From Octopus vulgaris (taxonomy: Eukaryota): a stretch of 64,000 nt of DNA. The notes below the pieces were generated by a model. That model was not told the DNA's origin and made no database searches. It saw nothing but the letters and a program-made list of their open reading frames with translations. The translations under genes and the position numbers were made by a program. Location of the stretch: assembly GCA_951406725.2 (NCBI GenBank), contig OX597828.1:59086001-59150000 (forward strand), given 5' to 3'. Every line of letters starts with the position of its first letter. Within the stretch, counting starts at the first letter, position 1. Positions 59,089 to 61,993 of the stretch are shown here, in pieces.

Positions 59089-59173
<85 letters not shown>

Positions 59174-59215
59174 ATTTTCCTTTTTTGTCCTCCCTTTTTG
59201 GACTTTTTTTTCTAT

Positions 59216-59250
59216 ATTTTTGACGAAGAGCTCCGCTCGAAACGTTAAAT
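59216..59250 (+). ncRNA. Minimal type I hammerhead-like motif (C3U variant or decayed) in short element 59170-59342
   Basis: ATTT-TTGACGA-AGAGCTCCGCTC-GAAA-CG-TT-AAAT, with palindromic stem III AACGTT. Confidence 0.55.
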
Positions 59251-59348
59251 CCTCTTTCTTTCCTTTCCTGACTGTCTAATAACACCGTACTTGTTCCATG
59301 TCCTCGCATTGTTGTGTTTTCTCTTTGTTCCTGTTTGGATTATCTATA

Positions 59349-59387
<39 letters not shown>

Positions 59388-59506
59388 ATATATAGCAGTC
59401 AAGAATGCTTATTTCTATCAAAGTTGGACTCCGGGCATGACAGACCCTGTAATTCACATATGCAAAACAGAAGGAATAGATAACGAATACGAAGTCTGGC
59501 GGTTAT

Positions 59507-59617
59507 CTGTGAACATCATGTTTCTGGATTATAAACATATTGAATATATATTCCATATATTTTTGATATATATTTAATATATATTGCATATATATTTCAC
59601 ATCCTTCTTCAGCACAG
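59507..59617 (-). ncRNA. Second copy of the same hammerhead-like motif
   Basis: Reverse complement of 60148-60258. Confidence 0.65.
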
Positions 59618-60147
59618 CTTTCCATTGAAAAAGATTTATCATAGATTTATCAAATGCTACGTACCTCAAACCTTCTGACCATGCGACATCAAAATATTTG
59701 AAGAAAGTGAGCAAAGGCTAAACCTACATAGACGTTTGAATTCATAAATCTTCCCTCCAAAATTTTGCCATGCGCATTACAGTTAGGTTGTCAAAGGGAG
59801 TGAAAAATCCAAATAGTAATATAATGATAAGAGTAAATAATTTCTATAAAGGCTTTTAAAAAACCCCAATTATTTACTGGTAGAATTCGGTATGTAAATA
59901 TAGCCGATTACCGGCAGGAACTTCTGTAAAGTTCAGTATATATATTGTATATAAGAAAAAGGGACAGGCAAAACAGGTTGCTTGACCGCATACCGAAAAA
60001 ATAGAAATAGCAGTCAAGAATGCTTATTTCTATCAAAGTTGGACTCCGGGCATGACAGACCCTGTAATTCACATATGCAAAACAGAAGGAATAGATAACG
60101 AATACGAAGTCTGGCGGTTATCTGTGAACATCATGTTTCTGGATTAG

Positions 60148-60258
60148 CTGTGCTGAAGAAGGATGTGAAATATATATGCAATATATATTAAATATATATC
60201 AAAAATATATGGAATATATATTCAATATGTTTATAATCCAGAAACATGATGTTCACAG
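60148..60258 (+). ncRNA. Type I hammerhead-like ribozyme with long AT-rich stem II insert
   Basis: CTGTG-CTGAAGA-AGGAT[~70 nt]ATCCA-GAAA-CATGATG-TT-CACAG. Stem I CTGTG/CACAG, stem III ACAT/ATGT, predicted GUU cleavage after 60253. Confidence 0.65.
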
Positions 60259-60564
60259 ATAACCGCCAGACTTCGTATTCGTTATCTATTCCTTCTGTTT
60301 TGCATATGTGAATTACAGGGTCTGTCATGCCCGGAGTCCAACTTTGATAGAAATAAGCATTCTTGACTGCTATTTCTATTTTTTCGGTATGCGGTCAAGC
60401 AACCTGTTTTGCCTGTCCCTTTTTCTTATATACAATATATATACTGAACTTTACAGAAGTTCCTGCCGGTAATCGGCTATATTTACATACCGAATTCTAC
60501 CAGTAAATAATTGGGGTTTTTTTAAAAGCCTTTATAGAAATTATTTACTCTTATCATTATATTA

Positions 60565-60600
<36 letters not shown>

Positions 60601-60755: not shown

Positions 60756-60816
60756 TACATGTAAATGTTGAATGATGAAATGAGTGCTCAACACCGCTTT
60801 GGTGAATATATAATTC

Positions 60817-61121
60817 CTTTATTTGTGAATTAAGGCTACCATTGGTTTTATGCTAAGAAAAGTAGGAAAATATCCTAGTGTCCTAATAATTTTTCAAGCT
60901 GATCACATGGAGAAACATGTTTGCCTCCATTTTGAATAACAGTCTCGCTTCATTCATTGGATTTCTCGTATACTGTTTTATTTATGCGAATTTACAAGAA
61001 ATCCTGTGAATGAAGCAACACTGTTTTCTCCATGTGATTAGCTTTGAAACATTAAGACACTAGGATGTTTTCATGTTTTTCTTAACATGAAACCAATGGT
61101 AGCCTTAATTCATAAATAAAG
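60817..61121. repeat. Diverged fold-back/MITE-like hairpin (~140-bp arms)
   Basis: CTTTATTTGTGAATTAAGGCTACCATTGGTT... is mirrored at 61080-61121. Confidence 0.7.
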
Positions 61122-61993
61122 AAAAAATATATGTACACACACACACACACAGACACACATAAACAGACACATACACACACAGACACACATGCACACACAC
61201 ACACATATATATCCGTATGTGGTCAATGCCAGCACCACCTTGACTGGCCTCTGTGCCGGTGGCACGTAAAAAGCACTAACCGATCGTGGTTGTTGCCAGC
61301 CTCCCCTGGCACCTGTGCTGGTGGCACGTAAAAAGCACCCACTACACTCCTGGAGTGGTTGGCGTTAGGAAGGGCATACAGTTGTAGAAACACTGCCAGA
61401 TCAGACTGGAGCCTGGTGCAGCCTTCTGGCTTCCCAGACCCCAGTTGAACCGTCCAACCCATGCTAGCATGGAAAACGGACGTTAAACGATGATGATGAT
61501 GATATATATAGACTGATAGATGATTATAACAGCTGTTTTAATAAACAGCCCTGTTCTCTTACCATTGAATACTGTTTTGACCTTGTCTTTGCCTATATAC
61601 ATTATGTGAATATGTGTGTGTTTCATTAAATGCGTAATTGTGTTCTAGTTTTATCTTTTACATTCTACATTTTATGCAATTTCCTATTGGTATTTTACAT
61701 CTTGTTTGGAACTATAAAGTTCCCAACTTTATTTTCACCATTTCCAAACCTTCAGAGTCTCATTTTCAAAGAATTGAATATGTTTAGCTTCTTATCTTGT
61801 CTCTTCCACCCCTAGCTCTTGCAGCCTAACACCATTTTGTCATCTCTCTCTCTCCTCCCACTGCCAGCTGTATCATTGCAATCCTGCTACTCCGCCTTTT
61901 ACACTCTCTTGATCTCCCCGCTCTTTTACCCTGTCTAATCCTTTCTACTATTCCACTTACATTCACCTTGTATCTTGTGGGTATGCCCTAGCA

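Follow-up and report, generated by a model that had tools for sequence, protein, structure and literature searches.

A young 615-nt hammerhead-bearing insertion in Octopus vulgaris, probably pasted into a TA microsatellite by an autonomous Penelope-like enzyme

The stretch of Octopus vulgaris DNA analysed here (64,000 nt, hereafter the window) carries one insertion from a young family of 615-nt hammerhead-bearing units. An autonomous Penelope-like element probably inserted it, through its reverse transcriptase (RT)-endonuclease, into a TA microsatellite. Judged from its sequence, the family appears to be an animal non-LTR retrozyme by every feature tested and behaves as a non-autonomous Penelope-like element. 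Elements of this class have been described before, and the window copy is one of their ordinary products.

Layout of the insertion

The insertion consists of two arms that diverge head-to-head from position 60146. Unit positions are numbered from the predicted ribozyme cut, position 1 (M1) being the first base 3' of it, which is window position 60126 on the minus strand. The features are as follows.

59344..59391, no strand: left flank, (TCTA)n and a short TA run
59392..60146, minus strand: long arm, 755 nt, covering unit 596-615, 1-615 and 1-120 (locus L070)
59507..59617, minus strand: type I hammerhead copy 2, identical to copy 1, predicted cut 59512/59511
59512..60126, minus strand: one complete 615-nt unit, cut site to cut site
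60122..60146, minus strand: 3' half of a third hammerhead, without CUGAAGA and without the 5' stem I strand
60146..60564, plus strand: short inverted arm, 419 nt, covering unit 508-615 and 1-310
60148..60258, plus strand: type I hammerhead copy 1, with 3-bp stem III and GUU, predicted cut 60253/60254
60166..60221, plus strand: 11-nt minisatellite of 5.1 copies, which forms most of the helix II insert
60380..60493, plus strand: conserved 3' RNA domain, helix UUCGGUAUG/CAUACCGAA around small hairpins, with the proximal end site
60444..60564, plus strand: "tail" of ~118 nt, from the proximal end site (unit ~190) to the distal one (unit ~308)
60558..60598, no strand: right flank, (TA)21, the presumed target

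An earlier note, made from the sequence alone, had described a 615-nt direct-repeat period, and this was confirmed: 59392-59531 is identical to 60007-60146 across exactly 140 nt. Because the repeat is partial, the minus arm amounts to 1.23 units and is not a dimer. The inverted copy of ~420 nt with one homopolymer indel was also recovered, as the 419 nt of 60146-60564, which match 59619-59392 and 60146-59817 and differ by a single homopolymer indel at about 60517-60523. The short arm stops at the distal fixed 3' end of the family, and the 3' end of the long arm blends into the TA/TCTA flank, this left end (M120) being one of three such ends among 80 mapped loci. The placement of the unit in (TA)n stands for the right flank, (TA)21, but not for the left flank, which is (TCTA)n with a short TA run. 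The 615-nt unit has 33% GC and a longest stop-free frame of 69 aa, and the window copy carries 0 private substitutions.

In read-through RNA of this locus, the half hammerhead at 60122..60146 is predicted to pair with copy 1, and the plus-strand ribozyme is predicted to be buried inside the inverted duplex. Since each strand holds one whole ribozyme, the window locus cannot release a monomer in cis, contrary to the suggestion that it may yield a 615-nt monomer. The window copy is likely a dead-end insertion.

Several other repeats lie nearby. A Penelope-type repeat remnant at window 59170-59343 (plus strand) carries a minimal hammerhead-like arrangement of UUGACGA, a bulged A, a GAGC/GCUC stem and GAAACG, and shows 78% identity over 192 nt to a stretch of locus L087; the element studied here is inserted in the microsatellite downstream of this remnant, and locus L048 is preceded by a similar flank. 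An older inverted repeat at 60806-61132, with 82-nt arms that are 87% complementary and 163 nt apart, directly follows a (TA)n run and may be another Penelope-type remnant. At 61220-61510 there is a high-copy SINE-like repeat of ~280 nt; the window holds more than 10 of its relatives, which are 70-93% identical. On the minus strand at window ~16815 there is another hammerhead-like motif, made up of CUGACGA, an AGGG/CCCU helix II, GAAA and GUC.

The hammerhead ribozyme

The proposed type I hammerhead fold is borne out at 60148-60258 (plus strand), its core being intact and its stems being predicted to form. In copy 1, stem I pairs CUGUG (60148-60152) with CACAG (60254-60258), CUGAAGA occupies 60153-60159, A60160 faces A60240, GAAA lies at 60241-60244, stem III spans 60244-60252 and GUU lies at 60251-60253. 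The A/A apposition at the base of stem II and the insert of ~70 nt were both found as described (A60160/A60240; 71 nt); the minus-strand copy 2 (59617-59507) is absent from the earlier note. The pair G10.1-C11.1 directly before GAAA is missing, so that either an A stands opposite an A or an extra A precedes G12. Helix III, ACAUGAUGU, is self-complementary at 8 of its 9 positions, and the corresponding helices of sister families are the perfect palindromes CGCG, CGCGCG or CAUG.

The helix II "expansion" is an 11-nt minisatellite. A long helix II is not peculiar to this family: the helix II region measures 54-56 nt in sister families and 59 nt in an unrelated hammerhead at locus L079. This last locus (L079:90-574) is an inverted pair in its own right, with a type I hammerhead and a palindromic CGAUCG stem III. 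An Rfam search returned 40 matches with no hammerhead among them at E<=10, only microsatellite-driven matches of miRNA type, which is expected given the 81-nt helix II region. The active ribozyme fold is predicted to cost 0.9 kcal/mol in a circle. The RNA 60130-60280, put forward earlier as an assay construct, is predicted to block itself, its first 17 nt pairing over GAAA and stem III.

A young, non-autonomous family

The genome searched (G000) comprises 2.80 Gb in 227 contigs. Searching it with the unit gave 196 matches among the 40 scored of 1354 candidates, and full units are 95-100% identical. Both copy number and tandem arrays, which the earlier note had proposed to look for, are evident: exact genome-wide matches number 464 for an 18-nt motif that includes the cut site and 480 for a motif just past it (reversed control 0 for each), and arrays elsewhere reach 13 units. 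The first 100 listed motif matches fall in 52 loci, from which a family size of ~240 loci is extrapolated. Eighty loci were mapped, consisting of the 40 best unit matches, which are biased towards long copies, and 40 of the 44 further loci on the motif list. Units measure 615-618 or 644 nt, the shorter type being without a 26-nt hairpin. Private substitutions number 203 in 68,490 nt (0.30%), and the family is young. At least two intact ribozymes in the same orientation were present at 8 of the 40 motif-picked loci and at 24 of the 40 unit-picked ones; an example of a natural dimer is G000:C4:46546631-46547862.

In the long arrays L037, L038 and L031, unit variants recur in blocks, which means that DNA duplication can lengthen and homogenise arrays. 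These visible block duplications rule out long arrays as proof of rolling-circle copying. The 13-unit array L037 (G000:C1:120155384-120163475) includes four units with a G5-to-A core change, spread by block duplication.

No RT or endonuclease (EN) frame joined to the unit was found in the 80 mapped loci, the ORF scan covering 20 of them. A tblastn search over 120 loci gave three matches, at L063 and at L129 and L167, which overlap each other, all of them separate neighbouring elements or overlapping fetches. The description of a recently active, non-autonomous hammerhead-bearing element is supported by these data, namely the youth of the family, its ~240 loci and the absence of a joined ORF in 80 loci.

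Older sister families with units of ~565-600 nt (L142, L211, the L124-type family Z and the L148-type family Y) have the ribozyme and the 3' domain in common with it. Family Y (L148/L151-L180) is a retrozyme family with a canonical ribozyme, and family Z (L124/L181-L210) combines A·A with GUC. A 15-nt 3' motif common to the sister families has 1724 exact genome matches, compared with 5 for its control. In four runs whose RNA nature was guessed and which came without a silent-stretch control, contigs cover most of the unit and not the window junction; such contigs cannot show ends, strand or circles and count neither for nor against expression. A loose end at high depth in these contigs was traced to one genomic sister-family remnant, with no upstream ORF visible by eye.

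No paper on the 615-nt family was found in the literature, and supplements or repeat libraries may hold it. One octopus repeat annotation reports recently active Penelope-like families, the word ribozyme being absent from its accessible part (PMC13282606). For one squid genome, 235 hammerheads have been counted (PMC6962438), and cephalopod terms are absent from the searched portion of the supplements of PMC4209133.

Insertion footprint

Of the 80 loci, 69 are bordered by a TA/TCTA repeat at both ends, 10 at one end and 1 at neither, and these TA microsatellite flanks would mask any large target-site duplications. Adjacent opposite arms are head-to-head in 62 of 64 cases, with gaps mostly of -6 to +5. 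The 124 arm 5' ends are spread across the entire unit, and 2 of them fall at the cut site, against 2.6 expected; as there is no pile-up there, cleaved linear RNA left no trace. The start of the inverted block at the hammerhead, to which the earlier note had drawn attention, is a matter of chance for the same reason of scatter, since arm 5' ends show no excess at the ribozyme start (2 of 124 at unit 500-515, 3.2 expected). Unit 596-610, an interval picked post hoc, holds 8 of the 124 ends against 3.0 expected (P=0.012). This mild excess, 5-19 nt past the cut and including the window long arm, possibly reflects stalling at helix II/III.

The 3' ends are fixed. Among 140 outer 3' ends, 68 are distal (M296-320), 31 are proximal (M186-192) and 41 lie elsewhere; of these last, 11 jump back over a short distance to the proximal motif and three continue as far as the distal motif. 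The distal site was used twice in 0 of 60 two-ended loci by script and in one (L038) on inspection, compared with 12.5 in shuffles. Families Y and Z possess the same two 3' ends, ~100 nt apart. L1-style twin priming, in which the end of the first arm would set the second start, was not seen: the second end stays near 190 regardless of the length of the first arm.

The direct/inverted arrangement of Penelope type invoked by the earlier note is supported by 62 head-to-head junctions, a one-sided tail and TA flanks. The Penelope pattern comprises partial tandems, an inverted arm and a one-sided tail, according to the accessible part of PMC8557442. Two internal initiation sites, combined with nicking of both strands, give it a biochemical explanation (PMC11167929). 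The family footprint matches the two initiation sites and one-sided tail of the purified Penelope enzyme (PMC11167929).

The 3' RNA domain and folding of the unit

The proximal end site, at unit ~190 (window ~60443), lies in the conserved 3' domain. A multiloop closed by the helix UUCGGUAUG/CAUACCGAA recurs in 13 full rows, drawn from five families, and in one further partial row. The helix is maintained via G·U changes; among 19 consensus pairs, two-sided change affects 2, with a covariation term (+0.81) that is mildly unfavourable. In the predicted fold, the proximal end is inside the multiloop, and a hairpin precedes the unpaired stretch that holds the distal end. The domain may be the enzyme-binding site.

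Compared with shuffles, the predicted fold of the unit reaches z scores of -8.3 as a linear molecule, -6.1 as a circle and -4.3 without the ribozyme part. The comparison sequences gave -6.1 for Y, -2.6 for Z and -2.8 for the antisense strand, and the flanks gave +0.6, +2.5 and -2.5. Variants common to at least three loci break 2 of 16 sites, as opposed to 58 of 136 for private variants (p=0.028); selection on structure across subfamilies was significant in one of six comparisons.

The template RNA

At 12 loci, opposite arms of the same locus carry the same state at 28 of the 29 informative positions, the markers being linked so that the real sample is the 12 loci. When arm pairing was shuffled, agreement in the uncollapsed set was 0.16 (maximum 0.52), and tandem units of a single arm agree in 51 of 54 cases. 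One cut site is crossed by 79 of the 100 arms that have a fixed end, and two cut sites are crossed by 33 of them. Taken together, the agreement between arms and the crossing of cut sites imply that both arms were copied from one type of RNA over more than one unit length; this RNA would be either circular or a multimer left uncut. Snap-back copying, with one arm serving as template for the other, is ruled out at 14 of 55 simple loci, the window locus included, where neither arm contains the other; the other 41 are compatible with it. Arm-to-arm gene conversion could also equalise the arms.

Private variants favour the circle. Fourteen of them, at 10 loci, occur in all covering units (six in all tandem units of one arm, eight in both arms), as against 83 found in one unit and 21 in some. 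Unit-specific variants of the arrays L031, L037 and L038 are absent from the other 39 loci, which also favours the circle, as does the strong predicted self-pairing of the unit as a closed monomer. Against the circle stand the single significant result among six structure comparisons, the DNA-level growth of the 7-13-unit arrays and the purified Penelope system (PAc), in which ribozyme cleavage is dispensable and uncut RNA is the main substrate (PMC11167929). Additionally, 8 of 9 Xenopus dimers were without in vitro cleavage, according to the accessible part of 10.64898/2026.07.22.740005. That a ligated monomer circle is the usual template is close to an even call, and an uncut multimer is a less probable but serious candidate.

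Variation and evolution of the ribozyme

Eighteen ribozyme variants were aligned out of 27 listed types. Nine were set aside: six mutants of the main type, each found at one locus, a copy with a short loop and two unrelated matches. The stem covariation that the earlier note had named as a check is present across older sister families, where compensatory stem I changes are found. Two-sided changes occur at 4 of 5 stem I pairs across the 18 variants (GC/AU 12/6, UA/CG 14/3), counts that are inflated by related rows pre-filtered for three paired bases beside the core; the two outer stem I pairs lie outside this filter, yet covary. The covariation score was reached by 0 of 500 shuffles.

Family Y (L155 type) is canonical, having G10.1-C11.1 and, in most cases, GUC. 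In family Z, 12 of the 14 variants listed combine A·A with GUC, and the window family has A·A with GUU, with zero change at those positions across 40 loci. The A·A state is kept in the 615/644-nt, L142 and L124 families. Core positions show private changes only, except one change at two loci, and the loop II insert holds the subfamily changes. A·A and GUU are lineage states that kept amplifying, and most simply they would derive from the canonical form, a direction read without a tree. GUU is a weaker cleavage site than GUC. In the window family G10.1-C11.1 is absent, and since this pair is highly conserved in Penelope hammerheads (PMC4209133, accessible part), the ribozyme is likely to have reduced activity. 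Data on GUU or A·A were not found in the accessible parts of PMC1636495 or PMC2837043.

A candidate partner enzyme

The genome also contains a young, intact 781-codon RT + GIY-YIG family with a CxxxxCxxC linker (frame at, e.g., G000:C5:1041939-1044281), whose 8 copies are 96-99.8% identical. Its copies end in (TA)n at two sites ~40 nt apart, with 14 proximal ends, 11 with tail and one other (n=26). Its linker and target would make it Neptune-type in the sense of the accessible part of PMC8557442, an assignment made without a tree. On age and target alone, it is a candidate driver of the 615-nt units. The loci concerned (L212-L220, e.g. G000:C5:1040581-1045272) have an upstream frame of at most 479 codons overlapping the 781-codon frame, a 3' region of ~1 kb, a tail of ~40 nt and a hammerhead-like motif that has the U3-A8 variant of the core and a palindrome, ACAUGU.

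By blastn, tblastn and shuffle-controlled alignment, no terminal sequence common to the unit and 50 endonuclease loci was found, adjacent sister elements excepted; the GIY-YIG family search had scored 150 of 6136 candidates. Likewise, a tblastn search of four unit types with 137 peptides taken from 50 Penelope loci gave no match. A likeness between the end motifs of the unit and those of the 781-codon family was not significant and was dropped (P=0.14 to 0.997).

Comparison with known elements

As far as the accessible parts of the cited studies go, the family resembles animal non-LTR retrozymes (PMC7229834; 10.64898/2026.07.22.740005) in its tandem units, which are non-coding, low in GC and each furnished with one type I hammerhead, its dispersed monomers to multimers, its strongly self-paired unit and the Penelope-like elements alongside it. 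Its units of 615/618/644 nt compare with 170-400 nt for tested retrozyme circles and fall within the 51-972 bp of the 2026 survey. Unlike the animal retrozymes described there, it has an A·A closing pair, a GUU site and an 81-nt helix II region; the axolotl retrozyme HHR_Amex2 has a U·U mismatch at the helix II base and still cleaves (PMC7229834). Circles and cleavage, the defining marks of a working retrozyme, have been demonstrated for animal retrozymes in these two sources, whereas the window family is known here from sequence alone. No description of head-to-head arms or of two fixed ends was found in the available portions of either.

The family shares with endonuclease-bearing Penelope-like elements, as described in the accessible parts of PMC8557442, PMC11167929 and PMC4209133, partial tandems, an inverted 5'-truncated arm and a tail at one end. 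As with Neptune-type (TA)n targeting, the target is AT-rich, and the hammerhead lies upstream of two internal initiation sites. In contrast to autonomous Penelope-like elements, the family has no RT or GIY-YIG frame. Its tail measures ~118 nt, and ~100 nt in its sisters, against the 30-40 nt given for Penelope-like elements in the portions available. Its ends join (TA)n via TAT/ATA microhomology, whereas PAc initiates without homology (PMC11167929). As set out in the accessible part of PMC4209133, metazoan Penelope minimal hammerheads possess the G10.1-C11.1 pair that the window hammerhead lacks, and both have a palindromic helix III that permits a dimer. The Chlamys elements (MRC1, Chlamydomonas) are likewise non-autonomous Penelope derivatives, with pLTRs and multi-copy head-to-tail insertions; in the account accessible in PMC8557442 they are mostly without canonical hammerheads, use (CA)n/(C)n targets and show 3' likeness to autonomous partners. 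The window family differs in carrying a hammerhead and in having no partner matched.

Proposed mechanism and alternative explanations

The following sequence of events would account for the footprint. Multi-unit loci would be transcribed, and the enzyme would bind the folded domain 125-310 nt past the cut site and nick both (TA)n strands. Priming by one nicked end would then start at the distal site (~308), and priming by the other at the proximal site (~190) or upstream of it. The two primed ends would follow the same RNA path over more than a unit length, their products being joined 5' to 5'. The circle would arise by slow or protein-assisted cleavage of the attenuated ribozyme at loci with at least two consecutive ribozymes, and the longest arrays would be extended further through DNA-level duplication. 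A more specific version is tentative and, as a whole, rather unlikely: the enzyme would hold one 615-nt circle via a conserved, telomerase-RNA-like folded domain, the two nicked strands would get separate starts ~118 nt apart and would both run round that circle, and the hammerhead, tuned down, would keep the circle closed.

The best-surviving alternative is that the ribozyme is vestigial and the template an uncut linear multimer from long arrays, so that the family would be a SINE-like parasite of Penelope without a circle, rather than a functional retrozyme. We regard this as somewhat doubtful, yet well worth weighing; it departs from the preferred explanation at the template step only, and the chances assigned to the two overlap. 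It would fit the fixation of the non-canonical A·A + GUU, the use of chiefly uncut RNA by PAc (PMC11167929) and arm 5' ends that do not stop at the cut site, and the arrays of 7-13 units with their DNA-level block duplications are possible sources. However, the unit-specific variants of L031, L037 and L038 are missing from the other 39 loci, and the private variants shared by all units, six in one arm and eight in both arms, also speak against it. So do the confinement of core changes to private ones (one at two loci excepted), with subfamily changes sitting in the loop II insert, and the persistence of A·A in the 615/644-nt, L142 and L124 families.

Satellite-like spread at the DNA level, in which the hammerhead would simply be carried along while the repeat multiplied by unequal exchange, extrachromosomal circles or rolling circle of Helitron type, is improbable. 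The block duplications in head-to-tail arrays are what it would produce, but target-primed reverse transcription is indicated by the fixed 3' and scattered 5' ends, the strict asymmetry of distal and proximal ends, the head-to-head arms and the dispersed TA targets. We rate slightly lower still the chance that the copies are pLTRs, the 5'-truncated ends of an autonomous Penelope-like element missed by the search. Truncation at the 5' end is usual among Penelope copies, as stated in the accessible part of PMC8557442, and the endonuclease search scored only part of its candidates; against this, the upstream neighbour of a unit is another unit, up to 13 times, and never an ORF, these closed junctions between units contradicting the idea, and the Penelope peptides gave zero tblastn matches to the unit types. 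Least probable of all is an assembly artefact, a worry raised by the earlier note and by arms identical save for one homopolymer indel, which at the family level is answered by 62 head-to-head junctions with differing breakpoints in 80 loci and by a contig from an independent run (X5) carrying another opposite-strand joint of the family.

Implications

For animal retrozymes, the mobilising enzyme and copying from a circle have so far been argued from co-occurrence and phylogeny. The insertion footprint of the 615-nt family ties retrozyme mobilisation to the question of what the hammerhead does in Penelope-like elements. The model of insertion by an autonomous Penelope-like enzyme predicts cDNA starts ~308 and ~190 nt past the cut, one per strand, on a 615-nt RNA, and a young, intact candidate enzyme shares the genome with the family. 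If the reading is true, the canonical and attenuated ribozymes of the sister families would constitute a natural experiment on the role of the hammerhead in Penelope retrotransposition.
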